Source of the DNA: Thermoproteota archaeon
GTDB taxonomy: Archaea; Korarchaeota; Korarchaeia; Korarchaeales; Korarchaeaceae
Direction of reading: 5' to 3'
DNA length: 64,000 bases
NCBI GenBank assembly: GCA_026986575.1
Contig: JALSOH010000006.1
Span: 64,001 to 128,000 of the forward strand
Every line of letters begins with the position of its first letter. Position 1 is the stretch's first letter. A program made the position numbers and the translations under genes. Below the pieces are notes generated by a model. The model searched no databases. It saw only the letters and a list, made by a program, of their open reading frames with translations, and was not told where the DNA came from. Of this stretch, positions 30,551 through 61,843 are shown piece after piece.

Positions 30551-30625
30551 CGGGCCCGGGGGGACTTGAACCCCCGACCTGCGGCTCCGAAGGCCGCCGC
30601 TCTATCCTTGCTGAGCTACGGGCCC
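30551..30625 (-). tRNA. tRNA-Arg (anticodon TCG), intronless, CCA not encoded
   Basis: GGGCCCG acceptor stem, anticodon arm GCGGC-CTTCGGA-GCCGC, T-loop TTCAAGT. Confidence 0.95.
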
Positions 30626-56190: not shown

Positions 56191-57510
56191 TTAGGAGGTT
56201 GAAAATAGTGACCATCTTACCAGCGAGTCGGCCGATCTCAGCGCACGGCATGGGGTGGGGTAAGCGGGTATGCCTTTCCTCCTCAAGGAGAGGATAGCCT
56301 CCAAGGCCCTCTTACCACCCATTATCACCGGGATTATCGGCTTATCGTAAAGATCCCAGAGGTCGTATATCATGCTAGCGAACCTCATGGGATCGGAGAG
56401 AGCGGTCTCACAGTGTAGTGCAATGACGCCATCGACATCCCTCCTAGACAGGAGCACATCCAGCACGCCCCTGTAAACATCAGTCCCAGCTCTTCCTGTT
56501 ATGTCCACAGGGTTGGTGGAAAAATTCCCACCTTCTGGTACGAACTGCCTCATCTCCTCAATCAGATCATTGCCAGGCTCGGGTAAGTCAAGAATGGAAT
56601 CAGAAGCCATCCCCTTAAGGAGCTTTCCCGCCCCCCCGCTGTTGGTCACGGCGACGAAGGATCTCCCTCTGATCCTCTTACCGGAAAGTGCCAAGGCCAT
56701 GTCCAAGGCGGTGATCACGTCATCAGTTATCGGTAGACTACCTTGAAGCCCCTTCAACTCATCTATCACCCGATCTGAGGCTGTGAGGATAACTAGGGGC
56801 TTCCTTCGGGCCACCTCTTCGACTGTGGTCTTCAATGAACCGCTATCCTTAACACTCTCGGCATGCAGCACCAAGGACCGGGTGCTCCTATCCTCGGCTA
56901 GATAACTCAGAACTTCCCTCTCGCTGACATCCAGCTTGTCGCCCAGCCCTATCACCGCTGAGAGTCCGACACCTTGGACAGTGGCCAAGCCCATGAGTGC
57001 CATTCCTAGGGTACGGGACTCCGTGACGAGGCCAACTCCTCCCTCAAGCACCTCCATAGGACCCAGTGTGGCGTTGAGTCGGCTCTTGACGTGGAATATA
57101 CCCATAGAGGACGGGCCCAAGATCCTTATCCCGTGTTTCTGGGCTGACTCGTATATATCGTAGGAGGAGGGATCACCTCTCTTCCCAGAAATGACCACGG
57201 CGACCTTAACGCCCTTAGCGCCGAGCTCCCCCATGATCTTCGGGATCCTCTCAACGGGCGACACCAGAATTGCGAGATCTATGTCCTCCGTCACATCTAG
57301 AACCGTTTTATAGCACCTGATGTCGTGGATCTCCGCGTACTTCGGATTTACGGGGAATATGGGCCCGGGAAAACCGTACTTAACCAAGTTGGTGAGGACC
57401 TCGTAACCCATCTTGCCGGGCGTCTTAGACACGCCGATGACCGCAATGGATCTGGGCTCGAAGAGCGTCCTCAGTACATCCTCCTCTCCCAAAGAAATCA
57501 CCTCCCTCAA
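56191..57510 (-). CDS. ACD alpha-subunit paralog lacking the phospho-His loop
   Basis: PRSIAVIGVS, PVNP, TNSGGAG, NPVDITG, YPTP present; SHTGSLAG segment absent. Confidence 0.8.
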   Translation of the reverse strand: MREVISLGEEDVLRTLFEPRSIAVIGVSKTPGKMGYEVLTNLVKYGFPGPIFPVNPKYAEIHDIRCYKTVLDVTEDIDLAILVSPVERIPKIMGELGAKGVKVAVVISGKRGDPSSYDIYESAQKHGIRILGPSSMGIFHVKSRLNATLGPMEVLEGGVGLVTESRTLGMALMGLATVQGVGLSAVIGLGDKLDVSEREVLSYLAEDRSTRSLVLHAESVKDSGSLKTTVEEVARRKPLVILTASDRVIDELKGLQGSLPITDDVITALDMALALSGKRIRGRSFVAVTNSGGAGKLLKGMASDSILDLPEPGNDLIEEMRQFVPEGGNFSTNPVDITGRAGTDVYRGVLDVLLSRRDVDGVIALHCETALSDPMRFASMIYDLWDLYDKPIIPVIMGGKRALEAILSLRRKGIPAYPTPCRALRSADSLVRWSLFSTS

Positions 57511-58031
57511 CCTGATTCAGCGGCAACTGCCCTCCAGATCGCATCTCCGGCATGATGCAGATTCCTCACGGATCTGCCTCTCTCCTTTATCTGGTCCGGC
57601 GGTCTGAGTGCCCTGCCTATGGCTATGGTTGCTCCCAACCTCTCGTCGACCACGACTACCAAGTCTCCCTCGTCGAAGTCATCCATGACCTCCTTGATGC
57701 CCGGTCCCATGACGTGGGCTCCGCTGGCTATCGGTTTAACCGCCCCCAAGTCCACTACCACCCTAGGTAAATCGAGATCGAACTTCTCTACGGCAGTGAG
57801 GAACGGAATGAGGTCATTATCCTCGGTGGGGAGCTCGACGAGCACGGGTTCCCCCTCGTAGTAATAGACTCTGGCCACCTTCCCCCTCCATGGAACCTCG
57901 AGCACTTGGAACGAGATCTTCCTCTTCCTGAAGACGTTACTCATGCCCCTTATCTCCTTGACAGCTCTGTCTATAATGGCCTTACTCTGCTTTACTGTGA
58001 TCGCGTATTTCCTCCCCGGAATTGCCCTCAC
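57507..58031 (-). CDS. PUA-domain RNA-binding protein (DUF1947/MCT-1-like)
   Basis: VVVDLGAVKPIASGAHVMGPGI, GDLVVV, NLHHAGD. Confidence 0.88.
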   Translation of the reverse strand: MRAIPGRKYAITVKQSKAIIDRAVKEIRGMSNVFRKRKISFQVLEVPWRGKVARVYYYEGEPVLVELPTEDNDLIPFLTAVEKFDLDLPRVVVDLGAVKPIASGAHVMGPGIKEVMDDFDEGDLVVVVDERLGATIAIGRALRPPDQIKERGRSVRNLHHAGDAIWRAVAAESG

Positions 58032-58050: not shown

Positions 58051-58127
58051 TGGCGCCCGGGCCGGGATTTGAACCCGGGTCTGGGGCTCGACAGGCCCCT
58101 ATGCTAACCGGGCTACACCACCCGGGC
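58051..58127 (-). tRNA. tRNA-Asp (anticodon GTC), intronless, CCA encoded
   Basis: GCCCGGG acceptor stem, anticodon arm GGGGC-CTGTCGA-GCCCC, TTCAAAT T-loop, GCCA 3' end. Confidence 0.96.
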
Positions 58128-58163: not shown

Positions 58164-59006
58164 TCACCGTTTCCGCCTCATGCTTTCATAGACCAGCTTC
58201 ATCTTCAAGGCGTCCCTTTCTAACAAGGGGGACTCAGAGATCACCAGCCACCGGACGTCCTTCTCCACCATGAGCTGAGCTAAGGGCTCGAATTCGGGGC
58301 CATAGCCAGAACCCAACTCGTGGTGCATCCTCTCTCCGTAACCCGACTTGGTGGGCTCCACCTCGGTGAAATGCACGACAAGGCCGTCTAATGTGCCCAA
58401 CCTGCCCTCTATCTCATCTAGGATCCTCTCATAGTCTTTCCTACCCCTGATTATGCCTCCATACCTCACGTGTATATGGGCGAAATCCACAGTCGGCACG
58501 ACACTATCAACACTCTCGGCCATGGTGAGCACGTCGTCTAGGGAACCTAGTTGCGAGGGCTTCCCCGTGGTCTCCGGGCCGAGCTCGACTTGGAGTCCTC
58601 TGCCCTTTATCACGCTGTGGAGATGCTTTAGAGCATTTATTGCCATCTTCAGAGCTTCATCTCTTCCGAACTTACCGTAGTACCCTGGATGGAATGTGAT
58701 GTGCTTCGCGCCTATTCTGTGGGCAGCCACGGCCGCGGATATGATTCTCTCAATGCTTGCTTCTCTCTTTTTGGGATCCTCAGATGCCAAGTTTATGGCA
58801 TAGGGTGCGTGAAGTGAGAGCATTACATCGTTTTCCTCCGCCTGCTCCCTTATCCATCTGAGCAGCTCCTTGCTCTTCGGAATAGATCTGACTGCTTGGT
58901 ACTCCATCCCATCCAGCCCTACGCTCCTCAGATATGTGAATGCCTCTTCCTTAGGGGCATCTAATGGGTAACCAGCTAGCCCAAATCGGGTTCTATCGAT
59001 GTCCAT
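58164..59006 (-). CDS. nfo: Endonuclease IV (archaeal AP endonuclease)
   Basis: SLHAPYAINL, FHPGYY, PETTGK..GSL, VDFAH, HFT, SESP. Confidence 0.88.
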   Translation of the reverse strand: MDIDRTRFGLAGYPLDAPKEEAFTYLRSVGLDGMEYQAVRSIPKSKELLRWIREQAEENDVMLSLHAPYAINLASEDPKKREASIERIISAAVAAHRIGAKHITFHPGYYGKFGRDEALKMAINALKHLHSVIKGRGLQVELGPETTGKPSQLGSLDDVLTMAESVDSVVPTVDFAHIHVRYGGIIRGRKDYERILDEIEGRLGTLDGLVVHFTEVEPTKSGYGERMHHELGSGYGPEFEPLAQLMVEKDVRWLVISESPLLERDALKMKLVYESMRRKR

Positions 59007-59121
59007 CCCTTCCTCGATCTCCCGTACAAGACATTATCCTTACACCCTTCGCCTCCTTTTACTGTTAAAAGTGTTTGATATAGGGTGGAAGGGTTATATA
59101 TCCCTTCCGGTCCTATATAGT

Positions 59122-59260
59122 GGGGTCGCCCGGCCCTTGGCGGGCTTAGCCCGATGTGCGGGCTATGGCCTACCACCGAAGCGGAAGGGGCCCTAAATTG
59201 GCCCCGATCTCGGGCGTCCTCAGGACGCCTCCCTCCGGACACCGTGCCGGGCGACTCCCC
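59122..59260 (+). ncRNA. Unclassified highly structured ~140-nt RNA
   Basis: 13-bp closing stem GGGGTCGCCCGGC/GCCGGGCGACTCC (one G-U), three internal hairpins, TTATATA box at 59094-59100. Confidence 0.65.
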
Positions 59261-59286
59261 GCACCTCCACCTCCTTCGGTGATAGC

Positions 59287-60354
59287 ATGGCATGGTTCCT
59301 GAGGCCTGATGCTTTCTCGGCCTTCGAGAACGAGGAGATAAGGGACACGATACCAAGGTACATAAGGGTAGTGAGGAGGGAGGAACCTCCCCTCTTCAGA
59401 CTGACTCAGAGGATCTTCTTGGATGTGGGCGACGATCCTTGGGCCACTCACGACGAGGGACTCCAGATACTCTCTAAATGCGTGGTAGAGGGAGAATGCC
59501 CTAAGGAGAAGAGGGATGGGAGGACCTCCTTGCTCGAACTCAAGGCACTCCTGGCCAAGGATATGCTCCGAGGGTGCAGGCTGTGCGAATGGAAGTGCGG
59601 CGTGAACAGACTTGAGGGGGAGATAGGCGCCTGCAGAGTCCGAGACTCACGGGTGGCGAGCGCCTTCATTCACATGGGAGAGGAAGCCCCTATAACTCCC
59701 TCTGGAACGATATTCTTCGCCGGATGCAACTTCAGGTGCGTATTCTGTCAGAACTGGGATATATCTCAATTCCCCGAATCGGGCAGGCGGGTGGACGAAC
59801 GGGGACTTGCGTCTATTATGGATGAGCTGAGGATGCAGGGCGCCAGGAACATTAATCTGGTCGGAGGGGAGCCTACACCCAACCTCCCCCTGATAATCTC
59901 GTCCCTCAACCTCGTCAGGGAGGACTTCCCCGTTGTGTGGAATTCCAACATGTACATGAGCGAAGAGGCTATGAAGCTCCTGCTCGGTTTGGTGGATCTT
60001 TGGCTGCCTGACTTCAAGTATTGGAACGATGAGTGTGCTAGGAAGTACAGCGGGATTCTTAGTTACAGGGAGACCGTAACTAGGAACTTGAAAATGGCGT
60101 ACGACTATCCGCCCGGGGAGATGGTGCTGAGGCACTTGGTCCTCCCTGGGCACTTGAACTGCTGCACGGAACCCATCCTCAAGTGGATCTCCGATAATAT
60201 CCCCGACATCTTGGTGAACATAATGGACCAATACAGGCCCGAGTACAGAGCCAGCAAGTTCGACGAGATAAACAGAAGGGTGACCACCGAGGAGATGATG
60301 AGGGCCTACAGGCTAGCTGATGAGCTGGGCCTGAGATGGAGGTCGGTCAGCTGA
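59287..60354 (+). CDS. PflX-like radical SAM protein (COG1313)
   Basis: CRLCEWKCGVNR..GAC, HMGEE..PSGTIFF.GCNFRCVFCQNWDISQ, GGEPTP, LPDFKY, RHLVLPGH, MDQYRP. Confidence 0.88.
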   Translation: MAWFLRPDAFSAFENEEIRDTIPRYIRVVRREEPPLFRLTQRIFLDVGDDPWATHDEGLQILSKCVVEGECPKEKRDGRTSLLELKALLAKDMLRGCRLCEWKCGVNRLEGEIGACRVRDSRVASAFIHMGEEAPITPSGTIFFAGCNFRCVFCQNWDISQFPESGRRVDERGLASIMDELRMQGARNINLVGGEPTPNLPLIISSLNLVREDFPVVWNSNMYMSEEAMKLLLGLVDLWLPDFKYWNDECARKYSGILSYRETVTRNLKMAYDYPPGEMVLRHLVLPGHLNCCTEPILKWISDNIPDILVNIMDQYRPEYRASKFDEINRRVTTEEMMRAYRLADELGLRWRSVS

Positions 60355-61027: not shown

Positions 61028-61843
61028 ATGATCTCAGTGATAGAGATAGAGGCCGTAAGTCAGGGTGAGGGTATAGTTCCCTTCACGGGTCCCCCTCTGA
61101 GGCGTGCCCTGTTTAAAGCTCTATCATCTCAGAACCCTCTGCTGGCAAAGGCTTTAGAGATGTCTTCCAACAAGATATTCATTGAAGCCTTCCTCAGGGA
61201 CAGGAGGCAGTTACCGTGCGGCTTTCAAGATGATCTCGTGTATTCGGGATCTGAATATAGGGGATCGGTCATTATATTCGATGATAGGACTCTCGCAGAA
61301 GCTGTGAAGGGGTGGGTTTACAAGAAACCCACCATAAAGATAAGGGATGTGCCATTTAAGGTGGTGGGATACTCTTATCAGGAGATCGAGATAGAGGACT
61401 TCATACAGGATCAGCCTTGCAAGAACTTCAGGATAAGGTTCCTCACTCCCACATGCTTTAGGAGGACATCGACCCCCTATTGCTACTTATATCCGAACTC
61501 CAAGATGGTGGTCTCATCGGCATCCGCGGTCTGGAATGCGCTGTCGCCTAAGAAAGGGCCAGAGACCAGGATAATGTCCATGTGGGCCGATTTGAGTGTC
61601 GTAGAGACCGGATATGAGTTGTGCACAACGAAACCTGTCGAGATAAGTGAGGGCAGGACGTTAGTGGGCTTCATGGGCTGGGTCAATTACAAGGTGGTGG
61701 ATCATCCCGAATGGCACTCCGGCTCCCATGAGGAGATGGCCACATGGCTCAACACCTACCTGAGATTCGCGGAATTGGTGGGAGTCGGATACATGAGAAA
61801 TGCGGGATTCGGTAAGATAAGGTTCGAAGTGAAGAGGAGGTAG
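61028..61843 (+). CDS. cas6: CRISPR-associated endoribonuclease Cas6 (orphan)
   Basis: IRFLTPTCFR, GFMGWVNY, C-terminal G-rich loop GVGYMRNAGFG. Confidence 0.85.
   Translation: MISVIEIEAVSQGEGIVPFTGPPLRRALFKALSSQNPLLAKALEMSSNKIFIEAFLRDRRQLPCGFQDDLVYSGSEYRGSVIIFDDRTLAEAVKGWVYKKPTIKIRDVPFKVVGYSYQEIEIEDFIQDQPCKNFRIRFLTPTCFRRTSTPYCYLYPNSKMVVSSASAVWNALSPKKGPETRIMSMWADLSVVETGYELCTTKPVEISEGRTLVGFMGWVNYKVVDHPEWHSGSHEEMATWLNTYLRFAELVGVGYMRNAGFGKIRFEVKRR

Follow-up and report, generated by a model that had tools for sequence, protein, structure and literature searches.

Within a 64,000-nt stretch of DNA from a Thermoproteota archaeon of the family Korarchaeaceae (GenBank assembly GCA_026986575.1, contig JALSOH010000006.1, positions 64,001 to 128,000 of the forward strand; hereafter the window), a GC-rich, palindrome-bearing segment lies immediately ahead of a gene for a PflX-like radical S-adenosylmethionine (SAM) enzyme. 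Does this segment specify an RNA with a life of its own, a leader that regulates the enzyme gene, or both? An original prediction, made from the nucleotide sequence, had described an unclassified multibranched RNA with its own promoter, and all of its coordinates match the window base for base. The RNA core occupies window positions 59122-59258 on the + strand, and is a GC-rich, multi-helix element of about 137 nt with a 13-bp closing stem. It is a genuine RNA family absent from Rfam and from the literature searched, well supported by a clear promoter, by numerous compensatory changes and by the 32 copies that five genera contribute. Our preferred interpretation, held with a confidence that falls somewhat short of even, is that the element would be a stand-alone stable RNA, probably protein-binding, that doubles as the 5' leader of the enzyme mRNA.

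The closing stem, P1, pairs GGGGTCGCCCGGC (59122-59134) with GCCGGGCGACTCC (59246-59258) and includes a G59124·U59256 pair, exactly as predicted; in the RNA its 5' strand is GGGGUCGCCCGGC and its 3' strand is GCCGGGCGACUCC. The predicted hairpin sequences TAGCCCG-ATGTG-CGGGCTA (59147-59165), GGGGCC-CTAAATT-GGCCCC (59187-59205) and GGCGTCC-TCA-GGACGCC (59213-59229) are likewise in place. The + strand folds with a minimum free energy of -85.8 kcal/mol (z = -4.84), and 0/200 shuffled sequences folded equally well; the fold of the - strand is weaker (z = -3.73), with 1/200 shuffles as good. The + strand was also correctly assigned as the RNA strand, since the G·U pairs of the closing stem (in 6 + 3 + 3 + 2 sequences) would be mismatches on the opposite strand. 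The element forms a GC island, with a GC fraction of 0.59-0.79 compared with 0.40-0.66 in its surroundings, and its hosts look thermophilic, having GC-rich RNA stems in lower-GC genomes. Two open frames on the - strand overlap the element (58976-59356 and 59170-59451, encoding 126 and 93 aa), and indels of 1-2 nt among relatives argue that they are high-GC artefacts.

For the window's genus, a refined model of 19 sequences comprises P1, an arm (W), a helix (P3) enclosing two hairpins (Y and Z), and a short hairpin over the Shine-Dalgarno sequence. In this model 94.7% of the alignment cells pair, compared with 38-50% when the partners are slid, and nine pairs are changed on both sides. The observed covariation was reached by 0/500 shuffles. 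P1 contributes both-side changes at 5/13 pairs within the genus. Arm W (59139-59170) rests on three GGC/GCC base pairs; above these come an internal loop, GGGCU, that is invariant, and the hairpin UAGCCC(G)-loop-(C)GGGCUA. One pair of W, at alignment columns 21/54, occurs as G·U, U-A or C-G in 15/16 sequences, and the stems of W are nearly invariant in the genus. The long arm of the original prediction stands in part: its outer pairing of TGGCGGGC with GCCTACCA is only partly supported, comparative data favoring a base of three pairs, GGC 59139-59141/GCC 59168-59170, plus the internal loop, and the CCAC at 59173-59176 is instead part of a small hairpin or takes part in alternative pairings. 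That small hairpin, X (59173-59184, CCAC-CGAA-GCGG), overlaps P3 and carries a C·A mismatch in the window's genome only. Close relatives have GUGG and perfect pairing, and genus-wide 77.6% of the cells pair since one clade uses another register. At window position 59182 a C is found here only, with U in close relatives; the change makes the C·A mismatch in X, yet it converts a U·G pair into C-G in P3.

P3 pairs CGGA (59182-59185) with UCCG (59234-59237) and encloses hairpins Y and Z. It is predicted in folds at 70 and 85 °C, and its three inner pairs are intact in 18-19 of the 19 sequences, with a G-C to A-U exchange in one genome of the set (G002). RNAalifold had proposed another helix in its place (P2; CGG at alignment columns 23-25 with CCG at columns 122-124), which was dropped in favor of P3 (columns 66-69 with columns 121-124) because G002 compensates in P3 and breaks P2. 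Hairpin Y (59187-59205; GGGGCC-CUAAAUU-GGCCCC), whose loop has the consensus C-N-N-N-R-U-U, is the most conserved feature between genera. Hairpin Z (59212-59230; (G)GGCGUCC-UCA-GGACGCC(U)) shows 97.7% pairing and hardly varies among genus members, and its position shifts in other genera. The near invariance of W and Z means that they give little information for or against their own pairing. Following Z, at 59231-59245, are a conserved CCCUCCG motif, whose UCCG provides the 3' strand of P3, and then the junction GACACCGU; the motif is kept in G002, displaced by about 8 nt. Unpaired nucleotides that are invariant in the genus are the GGGCU loop, an AA, and an AC after P3. Several alternative pairings are present, namely X as opposed to P3 and the CCUCC of the linker downstream of P1 as opposed to the internal CCCUCC. 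The original prediction had also pointed to CGGGC on both sides of TAGCCCG as a basis for mutually exclusive pairing, which is physically possible; both segments are invariant in the genus. A covariation scan over all column pairs was swamped by the split of the genus into two clades and hence was not used.

The predicted closing stem and the hairpin with the 7-nt loop are also the parts that covariation supports beyond the genus. In a cross-genus alignment, both-side changes were found at 8/13 pairs of P1 over five genera and at 2/6 pairs of Y, 94% of the cells paired compared with 32-59% when slid, and 0/500 shuffles reached the observed value, figures that come from 31/32 copies refitted to the model and are therefore biased towards structure. 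Hairpin Y is present in 32/32 copies, its stem occurring as GGGGCC/GGCCCC, GGGGUC/GACCCC, GGGGAUC/GAUCCCC, GGGGGCC/GGCCCCC or GACGGGC/GCCCGUC and its loop as C-N-N-N-R-U-U or an 8-nt variant. What is kept between genera is the P1 sequence CCGCCCGG/CCGGGCGG, in a stem of 11-15 GC-rich base pairs, and the Y hairpin with its loop; in a MAFFT alignment, which is weak in the variable arms, the AUU of the Y loop are the only unpaired nucleotides conserved across genera. The inner arms vary by genus, one genus being nearly rod-shaped with compensatory changes of its own, and over the five genera P1 and Y alone align, so that a common inner-arm fold could not be derived. Conservation of a duplex and a loop between genera, with none seen in the junctions, is a pattern that we read as typical of protein-recognized RNAs, and the element would most likely be a protein-binding RNA of ribonucleoprotein type, recognized through the P1 duplex and the Y loop.

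The original prediction left the RNA unclassified, and comparison with known families agrees. No Rfam 15 family lies at the element, and a scan of the whole window at gathering scores gave two tRNAs only. At E ≤ 10 the best match in 58900-59500 reached 18.4 bits compared with a gathering score of 35 (CRISPR-DR28, a family of clustered regularly interspaced short palindromic repeats; E = 1.6), and no riboswitch model scored at the element even at this threshold. Eight copies from four other genera, scanned at E ≤ 1, gave a lone match of 20.4 bits compared with 58.6, on the opposite strand. The CRISPR-DR28 matches (18.4 and 15.8 bits, with the same gathering score of 35) fall at window 59126-59165 in the W hairpin and were judged to be chance. 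Of the classes that had been set aside from the bare sequence, the tRNAs and the 5S, SRP and RNase P RNAs were indeed found elsewhere. ARAGORN and RF00005 place the window's tRNAs at 30551-30625 and 58054-58127 only; RF00001 has no match at the element at the gathering score or at E ≤ 10, and the 5S rRNA of the genome is at C4:368290-368411 (contig:positions; 83.8 bits); and RF01857 and RF00373, for the signal recognition particle (SRP) and RNase P RNAs, match above their cut-offs at C6:41755-42069 and C4:159381-159668, not at the element. As regards box C/D and H/ACA guide RNAs, there is no match to an Rfam snoRNA or sRNA model, and inspection by eye, a weak check, revealed neither an ACA conserved downstream of P1 nor the GA/AG signature of a kink-turn in the alignment. 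In tRNA anticodon loops position 2 is a constant U and position 37 a purine; the 7-nt loop of Y has no constant U at position 2 and a U in place of purine 37, and a tRNA-like identity was rejected. A loose genome scan for Y-like hairpins, as might reflect rRNA or tRNA mimicry, returned 12 unrelated matches.

It is scarcely credible, given these results, that the element is no new RNA at all, being instead a divergent member of a known family, part of a coding sequence, a miniature inverted-repeat transposable element (MITE) or a GC-rich palindrome that arose by chance. We found no support for any of these: Rfam has no match in five genera, and the real 5S, SRP and RNase P RNAs map to other places in the genome; a search of the 1.91 Mb of that genome gave a single full-length match and five others, of 14-25 nt with E ≥ 1.1, so that the dispersed copies of a MITE are not seen; indels of 1-2 nt throughout the alignment exclude a coding segment; and the covariation exceeds all controls. 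Literature searches on Korarchaeota riboswitches, and broader ones, did not find the element, judged by titles and abstracts.

How widely is the RNA distributed? BLASTN detected full-length relatives, 99% to 69% identical, in 18/20 other genomes of the genus and none outside the genus. A first covariance model, built from 19 genus copies, gave weak full-length matches in three other genera, 5/5 of them immediately ahead of the radical SAM orthologue; the alignment of its 73 matches contained junk and was discarded. Upstream regions of orthologues in ten further genomes contained the element in eight family members and in neither of two sister-family genomes (G025 and G027). A second covariance model, made from 32 copies with P1 and Y as the sole structure, was used to scan 43 species genomes of the phylum, comprising 36 from the family and 7 others. 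It gave exactly one match each in 32/36 family genomes, representing five genera, and 0 matches in the 7 phylum genomes outside the family. Three of the four family misses are genomes that are 70-72% complete, and in the fourth (G043) a copy is visible by eye, below the threshold. At 77 orthologous radical-SAM loci from other archaea the second model found nothing in 76, the single match (L050) being a record of family member G023, and a metagenome scan for further family members recovered orthologues of ≤50% identity only, none with the RNA. Over the genomes and loci surveyed, the RNA is thus restricted to the Korarchaeaceae. Each of the 32 copies examined is directly 5' of the PflX-like radical SAM gene and in the same orientation.

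The element also has the promoter geometry of a transcription unit. A TTATATA box had been predicted at 59094-59100 and is there; together with a purine-rich GGAAGGG resembling a transcription factor B recognition element (BRE), followed by TTATATA(T), it forms an archaeal promoter at 59087-59101 (+). In 30/32 copies, a regular expression search places the start of a TATA-like box 26-31 nt upstream of the first base of P1, and in the remaining two copies TATTTATC stands in the place of the TATA box, as judged by eye. An A/T-rich stretch (CTATATAGT, 59113-59121) precedes the presumed transcription start in every copy, and the stem begins in all copies with a G preceded by a pyrimidine. By analogy with archaeal promoters we read the A/T-rich stretch and the pyrimidine-G step as a putative proximal promoter element and initiator. 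The archaeal TATA box is centred near -26, and from this geometry transcription should start at or adjacent to the first G of P1. The RNA would then be transcribed from its own BRE/TATA promoter, with its 5' end at the first G of the closing stem. No U-tract terminator follows P1, so that transcription would continue into the radical SAM gene, and the RNA would thus also be the 5' leader of the mRNA. As a stable part of that transcript it may be released, or left over, by processing.

One genome of the window's genus provides a natural experiment on whether the element is a leader or an independent RNA. In G003, a metagenome-assembled genome that is 92% complete, the radical SAM gene falls short of its normal length by about 300 nt, with open frames of ≤55 aa and fragments that are 30-58% identical at the protein level, and the divergent gene on the other side of the RNA, which encodes a triosephosphate isomerase (TIM) barrel protein, is cut to about 80 codons. 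No second radical SAM copy was found in G003 at E ≤ 1e-60. In the locus concerned (L041, G003:C16, 1100-2432) both flanking genes are decayed and the genes around them are intact; the joint decay suggests that the radical SAM and TIM-barrel proteins share one pathway. Compared with the sister genome G019, the RNA core of G003 is 88.9% identical with 0 indels over 135 nt, and the two genomes agree fully over a 20-nt promoter core. Neighbor genes that are intact show 76-80% identity between the two genomes, and alignment of the two pseudogenes takes 40-45 gap events. With the register of P1 corrected by hand for a shift of one column, the core has 15 substitutions, comprising 7 in stems, all of which keep pairing (C-G to U·G, U-A to U·G and G·U to A-U), and 8 in loops and junctions. 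Outgroups indicate that at least 5/7 of the stem changes arose on the G003 line. As a rough estimate rather than a computed value, 7/7 pair-keeping changes might be expected under neutrality in less than one in a thousand trials. The linker behind the core has fared differently, its CCUCC motifs and Shine-Dalgarno sequence being gone.

An intact core whose changes keep pairing argues that the structure is under selection with no working gene adjacent, and because the core is kept where the gene is dead, we take it to act chiefly as a stable RNA in its own right. The original prediction had offered a stable noncoding RNA or a riboswitch-like leader; both remain open, and retention in G003 tilts the balance to the former. 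A stable, protein-bound RNA is favored, besides G003, by the long clamp that holds the 5' and 3' ends together, by the GC island and by the conservation of duplex and loop. Several points weigh against this interpretation. All 32 copies sit directly 5' of one gene in the same orientation, at 25-45 nt from the start codon in three genera, which is the classic picture of a cis-regulator; the genus-invariant unpaired GGGCU, AA and AC would also suit a ligand pocket; and neither a U-tract terminator nor a processing site is visible after P1. A discrete RNA species and a protein that would bind it are both predictions. The argument for independence rests on the single G003 genome, whose gene may have decayed recently compared with when the RNA changed.

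The main alternative, serious though unlikely, is that the element would be a cis-acting leader whose sensing of a metabolite (as a riboswitch) or of a protein controls translation of the radical SAM gene, or transcriptional read-through into it, via the CCUCC repeats and the Shine-Dalgarno hairpin. The 28-nt linker (59259-59286) begins with CCGCACCUCCACCUCCUUC, which has two anti-Shine-Dalgarno-like CCUCC copies, and continues with the Shine-Dalgarno sequence GGUGAU (59278-59283); the predicted ribosome-binding site (GGTGAT) and ATG (59287) thus do follow closely behind the element. CACC and GGUG can make a short hairpin that occludes the Shine-Dalgarno sequence, in which one pair alternates between A-U and G·U, and we read the alignment as giving this hairpin a 7-bp stem in the second of the two clades. 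Such a leader would be consistent with strict linkage to one gene over five genera, with a transcript that would begin at P1 and meet no terminator ahead of the gene, as in the 5' leader of a riboswitch, with the overlap of X and P3 that allows alternative folds, and with the invariance of junction nucleotides within the genus. In the genera g2 and g4 the distance from P1 to the start codon is about 130 nt, and control would be exerted via this longer platform with extra hairpins, where a downstream segment may be able to pair with the 3' strand of P1.

Other observations speak against a cis-acting leader. No conservation of junction nucleotides between genera is seen in the MAFFT alignment, weak as it is in the variable arms, no expression platform is shared across genera, and the linker motifs are missing from G019 and have disappeared from G003, where core and promoter persist, in a single case, beside a pseudogene. 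P1, at 11-15 GC-rich base pairs, is far longer than typical switching helices, the element occurs in a single gene context in contrast to the several kinds of gene usual for metabolite riboswitches, and the 40 other orthologous loci inspected have no known riboswitch beside the orthologue that would give a lead to a ligand. For the genus, we can speculate about a switch in which the G-rich strand 5' of Y would pair with either the internal CCCUCC or the CCUCC of the linker, freeing or occluding the Shine-Dalgarno sequence; its basis is complementarity and one correlation of A/G with U/C between the clades, and it is not conserved in other genera. If the element is primarily a stand-alone RNA, the CCUCC/Shine-Dalgarno hairpin could be a secondary, lineage-specific effect on translation. 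In the g2 and g4 loci L130, L132, L133 and L134, about 130 extra nucleotides after P1 include a duplicated CCGGGGGG segment, and this extra stretch may be a different expression platform. In G021, a GC hairpin and then a short U-rich run lie between the RNA and the start codon.

A 5' end buried in a long stem, hosts that look thermophilic and arms that differ between genera would also fit a passive structural leader, a GC-rich 5' domain that, without specific sensing or binding, would shield the mRNA in hot conditions from decay at its 5' end or would set promoter-proximal behavior. We consider this improbable. A simple protective stem does not need the conserved C-N-N-N-R-U-U loop, the P1 sequence or the invariant internal loops, its retention after gene decay would not be expected, and the orthologues of all other lineages manage without the RNA.

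Could the RNA instead be a substrate or partner of a neighboring protein, as the original prediction suggested for the radical SAM enzyme and for a Cas6 homolog described as an orphan? The enzyme would modify or bind the RNA, with autoregulation by substrate mimicry, or Cas6 would cut it. The enzyme gene (59287-60354, +) encodes 355 aa with Pfam Radical_SAM and Fer4_12 domains, a CxxxCxxC motif at C147/C151/C154 and an N-terminal four-cysteine motif; no NCBIfam model matched the protein at its cut-off. Its AlphaFold2 model has a predicted local distance difference test score of 94, and the nearest solved fold is the pyruvate formate-lyase activating enzyme 3c8f (E = 7e-11; target template modeling score 0.76); a sequence search of the PDB likewise returned pyruvate formate-lyase activating enzyme only (E = 0.0075). 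The N-terminal region of about 135 aa (59287-59691) is helical and outside the best solved fold, and its C97, C100, C104 and C116, which are invariant in 53 orthologues, probably hold a second metal or iron-sulfur site. One metagenome orthologue (L165, 701-1813) has an in-frame stop and was excluded from the protein alignment. Members of the enzyme family are common in archaea and bacteria alike, one scan having confirmed 581 relatives, and searches of the literature on PflX radical SAM proteins in archaea and on COG1313 found no characterization of it.

Physical linkage to the enzyme gene, a Cas6 homolog (61028-61843, +, in the window) that in each of the five genera follows 0.6-1.7 kb further downstream on the contig, and the sub-threshold match of the W hairpin to a CRISPR repeat speak for a substrate or partner RNA, a proposal that we nonetheless regard as highly improbable. 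The enzyme has 581 relatives, 76/77 examined loci are without the RNA, and the RNA outlives the enzyme in G003, so partnership with the radical SAM enzyme is not borne out. The enzyme is also acidic (isoelectric point 5.5) without a recognizable RNA-binding domain, and its closest solved fold is that of an activase that acts on a protein. The Cas6 gene is distant from every array, yet Cas6 is not an orphan, since other contigs of the genome carry CRISPR arrays (C6:439744-441735, C7:22-3936 and C10:17932-18590). Their repeats are of no fewer than three types, of which two end in the usual (A/G)TTGAAA(G/C) tag. The repeats of five arrays or array-like loci are unlike the element, sharing 6-8-nt words only with it. 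Synteny with Cas6 is not specific because the whole neighborhood is collinear: the order TIM barrel, RNA, radical SAM, AAA_17 kinase-like, Cas6, SAM decarboxylase was found again in another genus.

Among known systems, the closest analog of the layout is that of 6S RNA (ssrS) and ygfA in Escherichia coli and its relatives, in which a stable RNA gene with its own promoter heads the unit, the protein gene is read through, and the linkage is conserved across related genera. 6S RNA forms an extended rod whose central bubble imitates the DNA of an open promoter, whereas the element is branched in the window's genus, has no likeness to 6S RNA in sequence or fold, and shows nothing that suggests RNA polymerase binding. 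The raiA motif RNA was found upstream of one particular gene, was taken as a riboswitch candidate and was later argued to be an independent RNA. The element resembles it as a conserved structured RNA noticed upstream of one gene; the raiA RNA differs in being bacterial, larger and present in Rfam. Y RNAs and bacterial Y-like RNAs are about 100-150 nt long, with a conserved long terminal stem, a variable inner part and recognition by a protein. They share size and an end stem of conserved sequence with the element, whose hairpin with the 7-nt loop is not known to have a counterpart; neither a Ro-type protein nor a Y RNA model came up, and no search was aimed at them.

Riboswitches similar to SAM-I (RF00162) share with the element the leader position, a closing P1, radiating helices and an occludable Shine-Dalgarno sequence, and the gene downstream of the element uses SAM. 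In contrast to them, the element has no Rfam riboswitch score, a much longer P1, no junction core across genera, and a core kept after the decay of the gene in G003. Autoregulatory protein-binding leaders, such as those of ribosomal proteins and the thrS operator, are similar in having one leader for one gene and a conserved hairpin loop and helix; here the enzyme is acidic without a recognizable RNA-binding domain, and mimicry of rRNA or tRNA was not found.

Archaea-specific structured regulatory or stable RNAs are few. One published source (PMC5473149) names the thiamine pyrophosphate and fluoride riboswitches as the commonest classes in archaea, with the known classes used sparingly there. 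Either answer to the question posed by the locus, if true, would be a first for the lineage, as an archaeal riboswitch class or as a new small ribonucleoprotein. In its boldest form, which we advance as a doubtful proposal, the element might be a riboswitch aptamer native to archaea and confined to one family, sensing a metabolite linked to the radical SAM enzyme (for instance SAM or a breakdown product of it) and gating translation via the anti-Shine-Dalgarno repeats; or, equally new, it might serve as the RNA component of an archaeal ribonucleoprotein retained even where neighbor genes are lost.

On the other side of the RNA, the divergent gene at 58164-59006 (-) encodes the xylose-isomerase-like TIM barrel (AP_endonuc_2), an arrangement conserved in genera g2-g5. 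Beyond it are tRNA-Asp(GUC) (58054-58127, -) and the gene for a universal archaeal PUA-domain protein (57507-58031, -).

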